A DNA stretch of 42,407 nucleotides, from IMG/VR virus record IMGVR_UViG_2565956608_000007, positions 1-42,407 of that record; one strand, 5' to 3'. Source of the stretch: a virus. Lineage: Duplodnaviria; Heunggongvirae; Uroviricota; Caudoviricetes. Numbering within the stretch: position 1 is the first letter of the stretch; the number at the start of each line of letters is the position of its first letter. The notes below the pieces were generated by a model that saw only the letters and a program-made list of their open reading frames with translations, was not told where the DNA came from and ran no database searches. Shown piece after piece: positions 5,711 to 11,380 of this stretch. Both the position numbers and the translations under genes were made by a program.

Positions 5711-6409
5711 TTAGAGCCTATTGTAATTGATTGATTCATGCATTATGGCTTTACCCATCACGTAAAGGTCATCTTGGTTTTCTTCCGTGATATACCATTT
5801 CTCATATGCCGGATTATCCGATAAGACTGCCAGCCTGTTTCCCTGCATCTGGAGACGTTTTAGGTGAAATGTTTTACCAAAAACAAAAACATACACACCA
5901 TCCGTTAGAAAGTGTCGGACGGAAATGTCTACGAAGACACGATCACCGGAATTGAACGTGCTGGCCATGCTGTCGCCATTGACGGTCATTACTTTTACGA
6001 CATCTTCACTACGATTCCCGAAGAGGGATTTTGCATGTTGAGTCGTGAACTCAATAGCGTGTAAAACCTCCACATATTCTGAAAGCATGAACGTGCCAGG
6101 CCCTGCACTCACTGAAAGGTCAAGAACCTCGACCCTGAATATGCCAGCGTTATCCTTTACCTCCCTTTCGGGCATGGTCTCTATCACATAGCCCTGTCTA
6201 TGAGGCACATGATTTTTTCCAGTTGATAGCCATTCAGGGCTCACACCCAGCGCATTAGCAATCTCAACCAACTTACGTGTTGTGTTGGTTTTGCCTGCAA
6301 CAAGACGCCAGATAGCTGGTTGCGAAACCCCAACTTTCATCGCTAATTCTGCCTGTGTAAGGCCTGCGTCAACCATCGCTTTTTGAAGACGATCTGAGAA
6401 TGTGTTCAT
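5711..6409 (-). CDS. cI: CI-like prophage repressor (HTH + S24 autopeptidase domain)
   Basis: N-terminal HTH (LTQAELAMKVGVSQPAIWRL) and C-terminal S24 motifs (GDSMAS ... FHLKRL); divergent from Cro-like gene. Confidence 0.85.
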   Translation of the reverse strand: MNTFSDRLQKAMVDAGLTQAELAMKVGVSQPAIWRLVAGKTNTTRKLVEIANALGVSPEWLSTGKNHVPHRQGYVIETMPEREVKDNAGIFRVEVLDLSVSAGPGTFMLSEYVEVLHAIEFTTQHAKSLFGNRSEDVVKVMTVNGDSMASTFNSGDRVFVDISVRHFLTDGVYVFVFGKTFHLKRLQMQGNRLAVLSDNPAYEKWYITEENQDDLYVMGKAIMHESINYNRL

Positions 6410-6518
6410 ACCAATAAGCCTATACAAAAAGTTATTAAGTGGCAAATACGATAAGTTATTGCATAAAGTTATTCAAGGCTATACTCTTTCCCTATGTTCA
6501 ATAACTTTTGGTATTTTT
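6410..6518. promoter_or_regulatory. cI-cro intergenic operator/promoter region (OR-like)
   Basis: Four copies of AGTTATT/AATAACT (6430-6436, 6454-6460, 6467-6473, inverted at 6500-6506) between divergent repressor genes. Confidence 0.55.
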
Positions 6519-6746
6519 ATGATCAATCAACATGTCAAGAGAGCTATCGATATTCTCGGCGGCCAAGCTGCATTAGCAAGGGCGTGCGGGGTTACTCAAC
6601 CGGCTGTATTTCGCTGGCTTAATGGTAGCCGGGTTAAGGCTGATCATGTCATGTCCATTGTTAAAGCTACTGGTGGTGAAGTTAAAGCCTACCAGATCCG
6701 CCCAGACCTTCCAGATACATTCCCTCACCCGGGCAATGAGGTGTGA
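6519..6746 (+). CDS. cro: Cro-like / YdaS-like HTH protein
   Basis: 75-aa product MINQHVKRAIDILGGQAALARACGVTQPAVFRWLNG; divergent from cI; start taken at internal ATG to avoid overlapping the cI start. Confidence 0.65.
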   Translation: MINQHVKRAIDILGGQAALARACGVTQPAVFRWLNGSRVKADHVMSIVKATGGEVKAYQIRPDLPDTFPHPGNEV

Positions 6747-6747
6747 T

Positions 6748-6957
6748 ATGTCGCACTCAATCACTACCGAAAACCAAATTAAGCCATTGGATATCGATTA
6801 TCGCGATCCGCGCGGTGTGATTGTGCATGTCACCGGCTGGAATCGGGATAAGCAGCAGGTGTATTTCACCAGGCAGAATTATCCGCATGAATGCATGCAG
6901 CCTGTCTGGAAGTTCCAACAATATTTTACAAAGGTCTCGGAGGCGCAAAATGCGTGA
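6748..6957 (+). CDS. hypothetical protein
   Basis: 69-aa ORF with GAGG ribosome-binding site directly after the cro stop. Confidence 0.5.
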   Translation: MSHSITTENQIKPLDIDYRDPRGVIVHVTGWNRDKQQVYFTRQNYPHECMQPVWKFQQYFTKVSEAQNA

Positions 6958-7315
6958 TTACGGAAAGGTGTCGTCTGAGTTTTGGTTAGACCAGAACGGC
7001 AACAAATGGAAAGTGCCCACGATCAAAGGTCGCCTGAAAATGCGCGTACCCTGCCATCGCGCACTACGCGAATTTGTTCTTTGGCGCGACGGTTTCAAAT
7101 GCCGTCATTGTGGTAGTCAAGACCGCATTAAATTGGTCGCAGATCACATTGTATCGCGACGTAACGGTGGGGCTCACCACCCAGACAACATGCAGTGTTT
7201 GTGTGATTCCTGCAATGCGCGCAAGGCATCCCTGGTTGATGCCAAATTCCAGCCAAGGCCTGATGTAAGTGAGGTTATTTGTTCTGATGGAGGGGTGATT
7301 GATGGCACGCATTAG
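6950..7315 (+). CDS. HNH endonuclease
   Basis: Cys/His motif CRHCG ... DHIVSRRNGGAHHPDNMQCLCDSCNARK; GGAGG ribosome-binding site. Confidence 0.75.
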   Translation: MRDYGKVSSEFWLDQNGNKWKVPTIKGRLKMRVPCHRALREFVLWRDGFKCRHCGSQDRIKLVADHIVSRRNGGAHHPDNMQCLCDSCNARKASLVDAKFQPRPDVSEVICSDGGVIDGTH

Positions 7316-8312
7316 AACAATTAAACCTGAGTTCTGGACTGATGAGAAGATTGTCGAATGCTCATTTGAGGCGCGCCTGATGTTTATCGGAATGTTCAAT
7401 TTTGCCGACGACAAAGGCAATCTGGTGCGCTCCCCGAAGCGTATCAAGATGCAGATTTTCCCTGCGGACATGATCGACTGCGAGCCGTTAATTAAAGAAC
7501 TTAGCCTGGCTGGGTTAATCAGTGAGTATTCAGTGAATGGTGTTGAATATATTCACATTGATGGTTTTTCTAAACACCAGAAAATTAACCGACCATCCGC
7601 AACAACAATACCTACTCCAGAAGAAGTCGCTGATAGCTCACGGAAACCAGCACCTAATTACATGGATGGTTCAGTGAATGATGATGAAAAACAAACATAT
7701 GATTCACATGCAAGCAATGGAGTTAACACTGAGGACTCACTGAGTGCTCACGGCGAACTCACTGACGGAAGGGAAAGGAAGGGAAGGGAAGAGGAAAGGA
7801 ATAAAACTAATTTGTCCGATTCGAATCGGACTGATGGCGATAAACCTGACGAGTCGAAAGGGAAACCTTCACAGGAAAAACCTGATTCAGAATCAGATGA
7901 TGCTGAAGGCCAAGATCCAGTCGATGTCGCTTTCGAAAATATTTTTTGGGGGGCAGGTCTGAGAAAGGATGCCAAGGTCAAGGCTAAGTCAGCGTTCAGG
8001 ACCAAATATCGCGACTGGAAAAAAGCGAACCGAGGTACGCCTGAGAACTTCGCCGTTATGCTGGCTGAAGATATCAGCCTCCGGGTGAAAACACAGCAAA
8101 TGGGGTTCGACAAACTCCTGCCAGCGTCATACCTGAACGGAGAGCGCTGGAACGATGAAAAACCAAATGGAGCTCCTCAGATATCCGCAAGCGCAAACGC
8201 CATCGGTGGGACAGGGGCTTCCTGGTTCGCAAAACCAAGTGACGGTTCGGCTGAGGTATTTATCAGCCAGGCAGCCATTGACCGCATGAAGCGCGGAGCT
8301 AACCGCCCATGA
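7302..8312 (+). CDS. putative replication initiation / replisome organizer protein
   Basis: N-terminus ARIRTIKPEFWTDE resembles conserved phage replication-protein N-domains (recalled, not searched); position upstream of the primase-helicase; acidic low-complexity linker. Confidence 0.5.
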   Translation: MARIRTIKPEFWTDEKIVECSFEARLMFIGMFNFADDKGNLVRSPKRIKMQIFPADMIDCEPLIKELSLAGLISEYSVNGVEYIHIDGFSKHQKINRPSATTIPTPEEVADSSRKPAPNYMDGSVNDDEKQTYDSHASNGVNTEDSLSAHGELTDGRERKGREEERNKTNLSDSNRTDGDKPDESKGKPSQEKPDSESDDAEGQDPVDVAFENIFWGAGLRKDAKVKAKSAFRTKYRDWKKANRGTPENFAVMLAEDISLRVKTQQMGFDKLLPASYLNGERWNDEKPNGAPQISASANAIGGTGASWFAKPSDGSAEVFISQAAIDRMKRGANRP

Positions 8313-8415
8313 AAAGAATCCTCAAACGTCTACTGGTTGCTGGCTATAACCGCGGCTTTTTGCGTGAGGAATTCGTGACTATGTGCTTTATAAAATTCGA
8401 TTTACGGAGTGTGTG

Positions 8416-10287
8416 ATGACCCCTGCTGAGTTATCTGAAAAATTGTGGGACAACGCCGAAAGAGTTGCGAAATACCTGCTTCCACGAGGACACCTCGAGG
8501 GCAAGGAGTGGTGCGCTGGTAATACCAATGGTGATGCCGGTAAGAGCCTGAAAATCAATCTCGGGGGTAAGAAGACTTGGGCGGATTTTGCAAGCGGCGA
8601 CAGCGGAGACCTGCTGGATCTTTGGGTGTTGGTGCGTAACTGCCAACTGCACGACGCTATGCGAGAAGCGAAAGAGTTCCTTGGGCTGAAGGACGACGAT
8701 AACCACTTTGAGGCAAAGAAGAAGACCTTCTCTCGCCCAACCAAAAAAGGCGTTAAAAAGGCGAGTCATTGCTACGACTACCTGGCTTCCCGTGGTATCA
8801 CCCGGGAGACAGCCGATCAATTCCGTGTTTCGGATGCAGTTGTCTGGTACCACGATGAAAACCGCGAAATTCCGGCAGTAGCGTTTCCGTATCTTCGCAA
8901 TGGCGAGCTGTTGCAGGTAAAGCGAATCGGCACTGAACGACCAAATGGCAAAAAGTTGATCATGGCTGAGGCGGATTGCGAACCATGTCTGTTTGGCTGG
9001 CAGGCTATGGACGCGAAAGCCCGAGCTGTTGTGCTTTGCGAAGGAGAGATTGACTGTATGACCTACTCGCAATTCGGTATCAGTGCTCTATCGGTACCGT
9101 TCGGCGGGGGAAAAGGTGCCAAACAGCAGTGGATCGAATACGAGTATCACAACCTCGACCGATTCGAAGAAATTTGGTTAAGCCTCGATAACGATGATGT
9201 TGGGCGGGAAGCCGCAAAAGAAATTGCTCGCCGTCTGGGTGAGCATCGTTGCCGCCTGGTAGAGCTGCCGCACAAAGATATCAACGAATGCCTAACTGCC
9301 GGGGTGAGCGAGGATGAAATCTGGCAATACTTAGGGACCGCTAAATTCTTTGACCCTGATGAACTCTGTTCTGCGGGTGATCTCCTTCAGGAAACACTGG
9401 ATGCATTCGAACATCGAGATGTTGGGTTATTTTCCAGCCCGTGGGATTCGCTGAACAATAATTTTAAATTCCGAGCCGGTGAACTGACGCTGGTTAACGG
9501 AGTGAACGGCCACGGTAAAACCGAGCTGGTGGGGCATATCGCAGTCAATGCCATGAGCCAAGGAGTTCGCGTATGCATTGCATCGCTGGAACTTAAGCCT
9601 GGGAAAATGTTGGCTCGTCTTACCCGGCAAACCATTTGCAGAAAAAACCCAGAACGTACTGAAATTATCATGACTAACGAGTGGTTTTCTGATCGTCTTT
9701 GGGTGTTCAAGCTCACCGGAACAGCAAAGGCCGGTCGTCTGTTGGAAATATTTGCCTATGCCAGACGCCGTTATGGAATCGATCTTTTCGTAATCGATAA
9801 CTTGGCAAAATGTGGGCTCGATGAAGAGGACTACGGTGGTCAGAAAGAATTTATCGATACCCTCTGCGACTTCAAAAATGAGCACAACTGCCATGTTCTG
9901 CTGGTAACGCATGCCAGAAAAACAAACGAAGCTGCACCAACAGGGAAAATGGATGTTAAAGGCACTGGCGCTTTAACCGACATGCCCGACAACGTTATGG
10001 CCGTCTGGCGTAATATCCCGCGAGAACTGGCGCAGCGCAAGGCTGAAAGAATGGGGTATGAGAGCCTTGATAAGGACGAGCAGACTGCTATCCAAATGCC
10101 CGCCTCAATGATTCGCCTGTTGAAACAACGTGAAGGGGAAGGCTGGATCGGAGACATAGGAGCCAATTTTGATTCCAGATCACATCAGTTTATCGAGGGT
10201 GATAAAGGGCCCTTCAATTACTTGGCTGGCAAACAGCAAAGTGAACTTGATATTGAGTGGGAAGCCACCAACGCAACGAGGTATTAA
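8416..10287 (+). CDS. bifunctional primase-helicase (Toprim domain + DnaB-like P-loop helicase)
   Basis: Toprim motif VVLCEGEIDCMTY; Walker A GVNGHGKTE and Walker B DLFVIDNL; GGAG ribosome-binding site before ATG at 8416. Confidence 0.8.
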   Translation: MTPAELSEKLWDNAERVAKYLLPRGHLEGKEWCAGNTNGDAGKSLKINLGGKKTWADFASGDSGDLLDLWVLVRNCQLHDAMREAKEFLGLKDDDNHFEAKKKTFSRPTKKGVKKASHCYDYLASRGITRETADQFRVSDAVVWYHDENREIPAVAFPYLRNGELLQVKRIGTERPNGKKLIMAEADCEPCLFGWQAMDAKARAVVLCEGEIDCMTYSQFGISALSVPFGGGKGAKQQWIEYEYHNLDRFEEIWLSLDNDDVGREAAKEIARRLGEHRCRLVELPHKDINECLTAGVSEDEIWQYLGTAKFFDPDELCSAGDLLQETLDAFEHRDVGLFSSPWDSLNNNFKFRAGELTLVNGVNGHGKTELVGHIAVNAMSQGVRVCIASLELKPGKMLARLTRQTICRKNPERTEIIMTNEWFSDRLWVFKLTGTAKAGRLLEIFAYARRRYGIDLFVIDNLAKCGLDEEDYGGQKEFIDTLCDFKNEHNCHVLLVTHARKTNEAAPTGKMDVKGTGALTDMPDNVMAVWRNIPRELAQRKAERMGYESLDKDEQTAIQMPASMIRLLKQREGEGWIGDIGANFDSRSHQFIEGDKGPFNYLAGKQQSELDIEWEATNATRY

Positions 10288-10289
10288 AA

Positions 10290-10601
10290 ATGGATCGCCT
10301 AATTAGAGAAATGTCGTACCTCTTTACCAAGCAGCGTTTTTTGGAGCTTCAGGAAGCGGCCAAAGACATCGCAATCGGTCATAGTGACTTTCCTGAGTGT
10401 TTCGGTCTTATTGCTGACGCCATCGCTGAATTTGTTGAAGACACTCCTGATGATGAGTGGCGAGAGTATGAAAAAATCCTCATGCACTACGTTGCTATGC
10501 GTACTCTGACGCTGTGGGGTAACGGGGATAAAGTTACTGATGTCCAGTGGGCACACCCTGGCTGGTTTGGCACTGCTGAAAAGGGAGAAACCATTCAATG
10601 A
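10290..10601 (+). CDS. hypothetical protein
   Basis: 103-aa ORF, stop overlaps the next start (ATGA). Confidence 0.5.
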   Translation: MDRLIREMSYLFTKQRFLELQEAAKDIAIGHSDFPECFGLIADAIAEFVEDTPDDEWREYEKILMHYVAMRTLTLWGNGDKVTDVQWAHPGWFGTAEKGETIQ

Positions 10602-11380
10602 AACTGGAAGCAGCACTCAAACATTTTAGTCCTCAGGGAATGCATATCAGCGACGATGTAAAGGGAACCTCTCCGGATCGTCTCACCGGCACTGATGTTA
10701 TGGCAGCGATTGGTACCACCAGCAGCCGTGCGCGGTTCGGCCTGGCGGCGTTCTTCGGTAAAGCGGGAATCAGCAAAACGGATGAACAGCTCGCAGTTCA
10801 GGCGCTGGCGCGATATGCGATGGATGTCGCACCGAAGAATGTTCGCAAAGCAGCTGGTGGCCAGTTCGGATGGTGTATGCAGATGTTGGCACAATTTGCC
10901 TTTGCTGATTACTCACGTTCAGCGGCTACCAGCGTGACGTGTCACAGTTGCAGTGGTACCGGGTTTATCTCCAGGAATGAGGATGTGGTTAAACATCCTG
11001 GTATTTTCGACGCCGACGGTGCTGAAGTAGTTGCCCCGAAGATTAAAAATGAGCTGGTGAATAGGGTTTGCGGAACATGCGGAGGAAAGAAAGTGATCCT
11101 TGCCCGGTGCAGGTGTGGCGGTAAAGGCGAAGTGTTGGACCGCAAAGCGACCAAAGACCGCGGCGCACCGGTTTTCAAAACGTGTGAACGTTGCTCTGGT
11201 AATGGCTTCTCTGCTATCTCCTCGGCTACAGTACACCGCGCCATTCTGAAGCGTCTCCCTGACCTCCATCAATCCTCATGGTCACGCAACTGGAAACCCT
11301 TCTATGAAATGCTGGTGGATACTCTGCGCCAGGGGGAGCGTCACGCAGCAGTGGAATTTGAGAAGGCGACAACTTATTAA
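10598..11380 (+). CDS. zinc-finger protein, putative late-gene antiterminator (Q-like)
   Basis: Four CxxCxGxG motifs; located between replication and lysis modules and followed by a promoter plus terminator pair. Confidence 0.4.
   Translation: MKLEAALKHFSPQGMHISDDVKGTSPDRLTGTDVMAAIGTTSSRARFGLAAFFGKAGISKTDEQLAVQALARYAMDVAPKNVRKAAGGQFGWCMQMLAQFAFADYSRSAATSVTCHSCSGTGFISRNEDVVKHPGIFDADGAEVVAPKIKNELVNRVCGTCGGKKVILARCRCGGKGEVLDRKATKDRGAPVFKTCERCSGNGFSAISSATVHRAILKRLPDLHQSSWSRNWKPFYEMLVDTLRQGERHAAVEFEKATTY

Follow-up and report, generated by a model that had tools for sequence, protein, structure and literature searches.

A homopurine repeat tract in a phage replication initiator gene as the probable strand-asymmetric segment of a lambda-type origin

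The location of the replication origin within the initiator gene and the modular build of the initiator are textbook features of the lambdoid phages. At the origin of phage lambda (ori-lambda), the O-some opens an adjacent purine-asymmetric, A+T-rich region and the O protein binds its single strands. Published accounts give this origin four iterons, then 38-40 bp of A+T-rich sequence in which the strands are asymmetric in purines, then an inverted repeat (PMC5043065, PMC3349717). Read directly from NC_001416, the middle of gene O carries the four annotated iterons, the segment ACAAAAGAAAAAAGAAAAGA (which encodes TKEKRKD) and the inverted repeat GTCAGAGAATTC..GAATCCTCTGAC. Here we describe a comparable arrangement within the replication initiator gene (7302 to 8312, plus strand) of a virus of the Caudoviricetes, IMG/VR record IMGVR_UViG_2565956608_000007, whose 42,407 nucleotides (nt) constitute the stretch that was analyzed (the window). 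The gene contains a series of iteron-like repeats with the core TCASTGA (7726 to 7765), an uninterrupted homopurine tract (7767 to 7801) and a perfect palindrome (7814 to 7831). We consider it likely that the tract represents the purine/pyrimidine strand-asymmetric segment of a lambda-type origin, situated where the initiator gene codes for its linker.

The similarity to ori-lambda is found at several levels. In both cases the known or putative origin lies in the part of the gene that encodes a linker and combines repeats (at least four; in the window four units and three upstream copies), a strand-asymmetric purine tract that encodes a K/E/R-containing peptide (TKEKRKD in lambda, GRERKGREEERNK in the window) and an inverted repeat at the right. 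The strand that carries the purines is the same in the window, lambda, ES18 and mEp043. Moreover, an acidic linker and a (presumed) helicase-recruiting C-terminal domain follow the inverted repeat. Nevertheless, there are clear differences. The N-terminal domain of the window initiator does not belong to Pfam family Phage_rep_O, its C-domain shows no homology to that of lambda O (16% identity in a protein alignment that included ES18 and mEp043), and its partner is a primase/helicase, whereas that of lambda O is P together with the host DnaB. The repeats have 7-bp cores on an 11-bp lattice, in contrast to the 18-bp dyad iterons of lambda that are ~20-24 bp apart, and the tract is pentameric with 51% G instead of A+T-rich.

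A closer relation is found with the phages ES18 and mEp043. Residues 168/205-310 of the initiator matched lambdoid 'replication protein O' genes by tblastn with 45-56% identity (E 1e-27 to 3e-28), and these homologues of the C-terminal half are encoded by ES18, mEp043, SEN22, Sf101, epsilon34 and Stx phages. ES18 gp59 has an annotated rep_origin, 'similar to lambda ori', and a toprim primase/helicase (gp61) is encoded downstream. In ES18 and mEp043 the order of elements is iterons, an A-rich purine tract ending in AAAAACA(C/T)TAT, the dyad GTCCGAAAGTGTTCGGAC, the C-domain (46-56% identical) and the toprim primase/helicase. The window dyad TTGTCCGATTCGAATCGGACT shares the arms GTCCGA/TCGGAC with GTCCGAAAGTGTTCGGAC and departs from it at the seventh pair by a compensatory T-A to A-T change. 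Because of the shared arms and the compensatory pair, the right half of the element is homologous to that of a recognised lambda-type origin, and not merely similar to it. The homology includes the tail of the purine tract (AAAAC..T), the GTCCGA..TCGGAC dyad, the C-domain and the downstream toprim primase/helicase. The left halves are different: that of ES18 is composed of a lambda-O N-domain and lambda iterons, that of mEp043 has TGTCAC..GTGACA iterons, and the tracts of both are A-rich, with 76-80% A+T against 58% for the window in this comparison.

Short repeats with an 11-bp (helical) spacing in a lambdoid initiator gene have been read as iterons before. More specifically, six imprecise 11-bp repeats TGTCCAACGGA in gene 18 of the P22-like phage L were proposed as origin (PMC8022706). 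Compared by description, the repeat sequence and the protein differ from those of the window, and a purine tract is not described in that paper. Iteron plasmid origins (P1, F, RK2, pSC101, R6K) share phased iterons, a winged-helix Rep, an adjoining opening region and strand-specific capture of a single strand (PMC5043065). By analogy, the phased short repeats of the window, together with a winged-helix initiator, would lie beside a presumed opening region. However, the plasmid origins are not located within the rep gene, and DnaA boxes are usually required. A literature search yielded no account of this N-domain family, the TCASTGA repeats, a G-rich pentameric tract or polypurine tracts in phage origins, which is a weak negative since the older papers on lambdoid origins are thinly covered. 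Most likely, the window presents a known design, the lambda-style intragenic origin, in a family that was not described before, the unusual trait being a G-rich asymmetric segment that doubles as indel hot spot.

The purine-only run, GGAAGGGAAAGGAAGGGAAGGGAAGAGGAAAGGAA, is 35 nt long (17 A and 18 G) and built of GGAAG/GGAAA-like units; over 7767-7806 purines make up 39 of the 40 bases of the coding strand. Tandem Repeats Finder reports 7767-7801 with period 5 (6.8 copies, 83% match) and with period 10 (3.4 copies, 88% match, score 54). The runner-up among purine-only or pyrimidine-only runs in the window measures 14 nt, and thus chance is not the explanation. A first-pass annotation, made from the sequence by a model, had placed a purine-rich imperfect repeat inside the replication-protein gene at 7740-7810; the repeat is indeed there, within these limits, and the quoted peptide GRERKGREEERNK is correct. 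The 11-bp-period repeat just upstream (7727-7765) and the perfect 9+9 palindrome just downstream had escaped that annotation. The tract, (GGAAR)n on the plus strand, encodes GRERKGREEERN(K), with AGG for every Arg and GGA for every Gly, and the longer stretch GRERKGREEERNK corresponds to residues 156-168 (the ATG at 7302 being codon 1). The tract encodes no residues other than K, E, G and R, the four with possible all-purine codons, and relatives swap among these four. If the DNA is required to be all-purine, the peptide is limited to these residues and the charged linker would largely be a by-product of the constraint on the DNA. The A+T content of the tract is 49% and its duplex stability is average (the free energy, dG, of a 20-mer is ~ -26; window mean -27). 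A short A+T-rich segment, AATAAAACTAATTT (7800 to 7813, 13 of 14 bases A or T), follows and includes the point where the homology to the Fraca-type phages begins. No 20-mer of the initiator gene is less stable than 7794-7813, which combines this segment with the tract's 3' end and has a nearest-neighbour dG of -20.4 versus a window mean of -27.2 (standard deviation 2.8). With respect to H-DNA, the tract is homopurine and its best mirror arms measure 13 nt with 2 mismatches, centred at 7779.5.

Directly upstream, the four iteron-like units ACACTGA, TCACTGA, TCACGGC and TCACTGA have an exact 11-bp spacing (Tandem Repeats Finder: period 11 at 7727-7765), and the last one stops one base short of the tract. 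The TCASTGA core is a 7-bp near-palindrome, of which five exact copies occur in 247 bp, where the remainder of the window predicts 0.053 (Poisson P ~3e-9). One of these copies, an isolated TCAGTGA (7671 to 7677), lies 96 nt upstream of the tract and on the same lattice (-96 = -8 - 8x11). Two others, both TCAGTGA, start 11 bp apart at 7519 and 7530 (7519 to 7536), within the coding region of the predicted beta-hairpin 'wing' (residues 73-78 of the N-domain). Some 230 bp separate this distal pair from the main array, whose 11-bp lattice it does not follow; in the Klebsiella phage Kp4865-4 the first copy is inverted through a change of the one central base (TCACTGAGTATTCAGTGA). The pair could be a distal iteron, or a site of autoregulation or looping. 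Among 60 distinct relatives, 248 TCANTGA motifs were counted in the 140 nt that precede the tract, and 180 of them share one 11-bp lattice (-8, -19, -30, -41 ... -129). Translation of the motif copies of the window gives I-S-E and L-T-D in one frame, S-V-N and S-L-S in another. Since 11 is not a multiple of three and two reading frames are used, a protein repeat cannot produce the pattern. At the other side of the tract, the perfect 9+9 palindrome GTCCGATTC/GAATCGGAC (7814 to 7831) encodes SDSNRT and is kept as a dyad in all initiators that share the C-domain. The homologous GTCCGA-N3-6-TCGGAC elements are found in ES18, in mEp043 and with ~10 types of N-domain, and have a DNA hairpin dG of -6.4 to -8.1.

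The element is conserved at the level of the DNA. A scan of IMG/VR with the N-terminal half of the initiator yielded 80 loci, which together with the window and two earlier loci represent ~60 distinct sequences. Regardless of the sequence downstream, nearly all of these have a (GGAAR)n tract whose start lies 8 nt beyond the last TCACTGA, and the substitutions within it are almost all A<->G, while the N-domains have diverged to ~52% identity. For the synonymous sites, a codon alignment of 58 distinct sequences was used, and in the 536 pairs below 80% N-domain identity it was counted how often a shared amino acid has the same codon. The same-codon fraction was 0.42-0.47 in the folded N-domain, 0.84 in residues 73-78 (the distal motif pair), 0.93 in residues 123-128, 0.84 in residues 142-155 (the repeat array) and 0.84 in residues 156-167 (the tract). 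Some codons were identical wherever the residue was shared (Ser146 TCA, Leu153 CTC, Thr154 ACT, Glu158 GAA, Arg159 AGG), and the codon of Ser124, part of the motif at 7671, was TCA in all 135 distant pairs compared. Codon usage within the purine run (Arg all AGG, Gly all GGR) is a circular measure where the tract is defined as a purine run, and therefore the synonymous-site comparison of distant pairs was relied on instead. Taken as sequence evidence, the same-codon excess and the lattice favour selection on the DNA. In a sister family, with an N-domain that is 43% identical, four NACGCG units at 11-bp spacing precede a (GGAAR)n tract of its own, 39 nt in length. The repeat sequence thus changes with the DNA-binding domain. 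In different subfamilies the tract measures between 11 and 40 nt.

The 3' end of the tract is a junction at which the origin/DNA-binding module is swapped against different helicase-recruitment modules. In a pairwise blastn comparison to phage Fraca, 6719-7002 matched at 94% and 7801-10500 at 96%, with no match between. The same right junction is found versus Fraca, LMessi and CharmingMan: homology starts at 7801, the last base of the tract. The cassette that replaces 458 bp of the Fraca-type phages (7003 to 7800, plus strand, 798 bp) comprises most of an HNH gene, the winged-helix N-domain, the TCASTGA repeats and the tract. The same N-module is fused just past the tract to at least four combinations of C-domain and helicase loader: DnaT-like with lambda-P-like, DnaT-like with DnaC/IstB-like, another C-domain with IstB-like, and ES18-type with primase/helicase. 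As the tract is present whichever combination follows, it belongs to the module of DNA-binding domain and repeats. The first-pass annotation's suggestion of a boundary of domains and of recombination here is thereby supported. The HNH open reading frame (ORF) of the window has the Fraca-type initiator's start codon and initial ~17 codons (MRDYGKVSS/P..FW) at its beginning, and the pairing of HNH gene and initiator is also present in locus L169. Possibly, this HNH gene moved along with the module of origin and DNA-binding domain, or helped to mobilise it.

A second IMG/VR scan, with an alignment of the C-domain, gave 80 loci that, together with nine earlier loci (window included), contain 64 distinct upstream regions. 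Some ten N-domain/repeat types are joined to this C-domain, and every type shows repeats, a purine-rich segment of 50 nt and a dyad. The repeats have a spacing of 10-12 bp; examples are GGGGCTT, NACGCG, GTAACGC, GTCAC, the lambda iterons and TGTCAC..GTGACA. In the ~10 types the purine fraction of the 50 nt after the repeats is 0.68-0.90 versus 0.53-0.59 for the whole gene. The ES18-type C-domain is always followed by the toprim primase/helicase, and ES18, mEp043, Fraca and L168 have the same gene order.

The pentameric repeat is also the indel hot spot of the gene and has given rise to frameshifted initiator alleles in some prophages. Locus L101 differs from the window gene by one substitution and the insertion of one 5-nt unit in the tract, by which the protein is truncated at 221 aa. 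An independent insertion of 5 nt (GGAAA) in a different lineage (P0022/L169) has the same consequence, a 221-aa N-domain protein. In the sister family, L215 has lost 4 nt (truncation at 152 aa) and L216 has gained 9 nt in frame, and these are the only indels in 1.1 kb. Thus, slippage, as proposed in the first-pass annotation, is supported as a mutational property of the tract: the indels found among otherwise near-identical relatives are confined to it, three of them frameshifting (+5, +5, -4) and one in frame (+9). Yet the 35-nt length is kept in 15 of 16 close IMG/VR relatives and in all 11 intact protein clusters of at least 80% identity. The length variation among homologues that was looked for is therefore found in part: it exists between subfamilies (11-40 nt), whereas 18 intact homologues with the same N-domain (61-97% identity) have the same length, save a one-residue insertion in P0016. 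The truly length-variable linker sits further downstream, past the palindrome, at residues ~195-205. It belongs to an acidic, Pro-rich and Ser-rich stretch (7832 to 7913, plus strand; predicted local distance difference test, pLDDT, ~30) with insertions of up to ~35 residues in P0016, P0017 and P0076. In the C-domain coding region, a T6G6 homopolymer pair is present at 7942-7953 (FENIFWGAG), and at precisely this spot the frame is shifted in protein cluster P0015 (19 members, 227 aa; ..FENIFGGRSEKG..). Either the gene has a second indel-prone site here or a sequencing error has recurred. Unit-length indels that shift the frame in a short tandem repeat within a coding region are reminiscent of simple-sequence contingency loci, the phase-variable genes that carry tetra- or pentanucleotide repeats. 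In contrast to those, the window repeat is short and imperfect (83-88% match), its length is the same in most relatives, and no sign is seen of reversible switching or of selection for it.

Several other explanations of the tract have to be weighed against these data. The tract could be a flexible low-complexity linker only, a slippage-expanded pentanucleotide that encodes a K/E/G/R spacer in DNA without function in cis. The region is predicted to be disordered, its length differs between subfamilies, indels occur in it, and a 5-nt unit read across three frames gives G-R-E-G-K automatically. Nevertheless, we regard this explanation as rather unlikely. The tract is retained in nearly all 60 distinct sequences with hardly any changes other than A<->G, its synonymous sites are about twice as conserved as those of the folded domain, unrelated N-domain types bear a different purine-rich tract at the same place, and the equivalent segment belongs to the experimentally defined ori-lambda. 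The linker proposed in the first-pass annotation is consistent with the predicted structure (pLDDT ~30 at residues 116-203, between the folded N- and C-domains, taken as a proxy for disorder), but its notion of a drifting low-complexity tract does not agree with the DNA-level conservation and the kept synonymous sites. In another view the tract is a recombination 'linker', a short shared stretch that promotes homologous exchange between the modules for origin/DNA-binding and for helicase recruitment. The exact mosaic junction at 7800/7801 and the various fusions of the N-module and tract, which break just past GGAA(TAAAAC), fit well. However, the tracts differ between N-domain types (GGAAR repeats, GAGCAGGAACAGG, AAAAGAAA) and are thus not shared across the junction, so that this explanation is insufficient, and the part that is shared at the right side is the TAAAAC...GTCCGA dyad segment. 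As the sole explanation it is distinctly unlikely; a role in recombination is compatible with an origin and would probably be a by-product of it, because the junctions fall where the constraint on the protein is lowest.

Two further explanations concern gene expression. Four AGG codons occur within eleven codons of the tract, whereas AGG accounts for 7% of the Arg codons elsewhere in these genes, and the Shine-Dalgarno (SD)-like sequence GAGGAAAGGA lies 11 nt ahead of an in-frame TTG at 7812. The rare AGG cluster and the SD-like GGAGG/AAGGA could therefore pause ribosomes or drive programmed frameshifting, resulting in an N-domain-only protein (such as the 221 aa encoded by the +5-nt alleles) or in an internal start of the C-domain. 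That this is the function of the tract seems very improbable, considering that purine richness and not the AGG or SD-like strings is conserved across types (the lambda, ES18 and Fraca types use AAA/GAA/CAG), that the tract contains no slippery heptamer and that Rfam gave no match there. Finally, the palindrome and the pyrimidine-rich minus-strand complement of the tract might constitute an intrinsic terminator for leftward antisense transcription. A scan does report a minus-strand site at 7831-7814 with the tail AAATTAGTTT, and the A-rich tracts of mEp043 and ES18 have a T-rich complement. We consider a terminator extremely improbable: the two sites that were found compare to 2.0 expected from shuffles, the one at the palindrome was judged to be chance, the T-run does not abut the stem, the tail is a C/T mixture in this phage, and a promoter scan found no leftward promoter nearby (nothing above the shuffle expectation).

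The reading of the tract as the asymmetric segment of a putative lambda-type origin builds on the anatomy of the element, its right-half homology to an annotated lambda-like origin, the DNA-level conservation, the modular co-inheritance and the behaviour of junction and indels. The putative origin activity, iteron binding and duplex opening may be pictured as follows. The winged-helix N-domain would bind the 11-bp-phased TCASTGA repeats at 7726-7765, and probably also the copies at 7671 and 7519-7536. The resulting nucleoprotein complex would stress the adjoining 47 bp, i.e. the (GGAAR)n tract and AATAAAACTAATTT. By analogy with ori-lambda, the duplex would open at or beside the AT-rich 3' edge, and the all-purine and all-pyrimidine strands would offer a strand-specific single-stranded target, so that one of the strands could be captured. 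The GTCCGA..TCGGAC dyad and the C-domain would then recruit and load the primase/helicase encoded downstream, a function suggested by the observed homology to the ES18 module.

A number of observations weigh against this reading. With 51% G and an average stability, the tract is not a classical DNA-unwinding element; only the 14-nt tail qualifies as such. Some subfamilies that have this N-domain carry a shortened (11-14 nt) or broken tract. In one of them, represented by six IMG/VR loci (L130, L132, L136, L138, L149, L156), a (GGATAC)3 sequence, encoding TDTDTD, replaces most of the tract and 11-14 nt of GGAAGGGAAAG are left, which implies that a long uninterrupted run is not indispensable. 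In the subfamilies that have the same N-domain but other C-domains, the conserved dyad is absent or different. Moreover, the 58 sequences behind the same-codon counts are phylogenetically related, so that the independence of the pairs is overstated, and part of the synonymous conservation could reflect the mutational bias of a slippage-homogenised repeat. A more far-reaching variant would make the G-rich tract an innovation of this initiator family, with two linked functions. It would be an opening or strand-capture element that is not A+T-rich, acting for instance via an H-DNA triplex under supercoiling or via sequence-specific binding of the pyrimidine strand by the initiator or primase/helicase. 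The tract would at the same time be a mutational switch, in which gain or loss of a pentamer turns the initiator off and possibly on again, leaving a 221-aa iteron-binding-domain protein that could repress the origin. We give this variant only a small chance of being right.

The initiator itself matches replication-initiation families of PHROG (phrog_1408 'replication initiation protein', E 1.3e-40). The ORF list has it start at a TTG (7299), but homologues begin with MARIRT, and clusters P0001-P0020 are proteins of 336 aa that start with MARIRTIKPEFW, in agreement with the ATG at 7302. A Pfam search gave no family at E <= 0.01, and the profile of Phage_rep_O (PF04492) was thus unmatched. On sequence grounds the N-domain appears to lie outside this lambda O family, though its fold is winged-helix-like. 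In an AlphaFold model built on 25 homologues, residues ~1-100 (7302 to 7610, plus strand) have a pLDDT of 80-92 and form the N-terminal winged-helix domain, with the order H-H-E-H-H-E-E; this domain is the presumed iteron-binding module. The top PDB matches by Foldseek are all winged-helix DNA-binding domains (CodY, BlaI/MecI, ArsR, F93), at probabilities up to 0.97 and E-values of 0.13-1. These E-values are weak because the query includes long disordered parts, and the matches are taken as consistent with a winged helix. Repeats, tract and dyad correspond to residues 142-177 and lie inside a segment of low confidence (116-203, pLDDT ~30, below 50 throughout), and are thus encoded in a probably disordered linker. 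The helical C-terminal domain, FENIFWGAGLRK...YLNGERWNDEKP (7914 to 8150, plus strand; residues ~205-280 in the model), is homologous to the C-domains of ES18 gp59 and mEp043 'O' and is presumed to recruit the primase/helicase.

The neighbourhood of the initiator gene is that of a lambdoid early-right operon: a cI-like repressor (5711-6445, minus strand), a Cro/YdaS-like gene, the HNH gene (6821-7315), the initiator, the primase/helicase and antiterminator Q (10598-11380). The primase/helicase, with toprim and DnaB-like domains, is encoded at 8383 to 10287 on the plus strand (Pfam Toprim_2, AAA_25 and DnaB_C; phrog_239, E 7.5e-147). Its probable ATG (MTPAELSEKL) leaves a gap after the initiator stop, 8312-8416, at the same position as a ~35-aa ORF that is annotated in LMessi, CharmingMan and ES18 (gp60). 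At a permissive threshold, Rfam revealed no known RNA element in 6300-8500; the sole match, U1_yeast (E 0.34), is a chance one.

As to the distribution, the first ~100 residues (ARIRTIKPEFW... winged-helix domain) have relatives of 40-60% identity in very diverse bacteria (genome-contig matches L008-L085), including Alpha-, Beta-, Gamma- and Deltaproteobacteria, Planctomycetes, Acidobacteria, Actinobacteria and Bacteroidetes. The scan of genome contigs mostly returned such distant N-domain homologues from many phyla, which are uninformative on the tract. The similarities point to the N-domain being a very widespread, un-named family of initiator DNA-binding domains. The right half of the initiator is 99.6% identical to that of coliphage Fraca. 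An origin of the window from an E. coli prophage was ruled out: megablast of the initiator gene against 5,426 complete E. coli genomes gave no match, and the full-length proteins most similar to it come from Enterobacter hormaechei, E. kobei and E. bugandensis. Given these nearest proteins, the window is probably an Enterobacter prophage.

The analysis provides a concrete candidate origin (repeats 7726-7765, tract 7767-7801, dyad 7814-7831) for widespread and unannotated enterobacterial prophage initiators, which are without a Pfam family and have hundreds of matches in IMG/VR and in genomes. Via the homology of the right half, the lambda design of iterons, a purine-asymmetric segment and a dyad within the initiator linker extends to ~10 DNA-binding modules. 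For annotation, a 'charged low-complexity linker' in such genes is to be read as an overlapping cis-acting DNA element, and a frameshift in the tract identifies a prophage as replication-defective. The G-richness of the tract leads to a minor but genuine question on the role of the strand-asymmetric segment, for which A+T-richness is evidently not required here.

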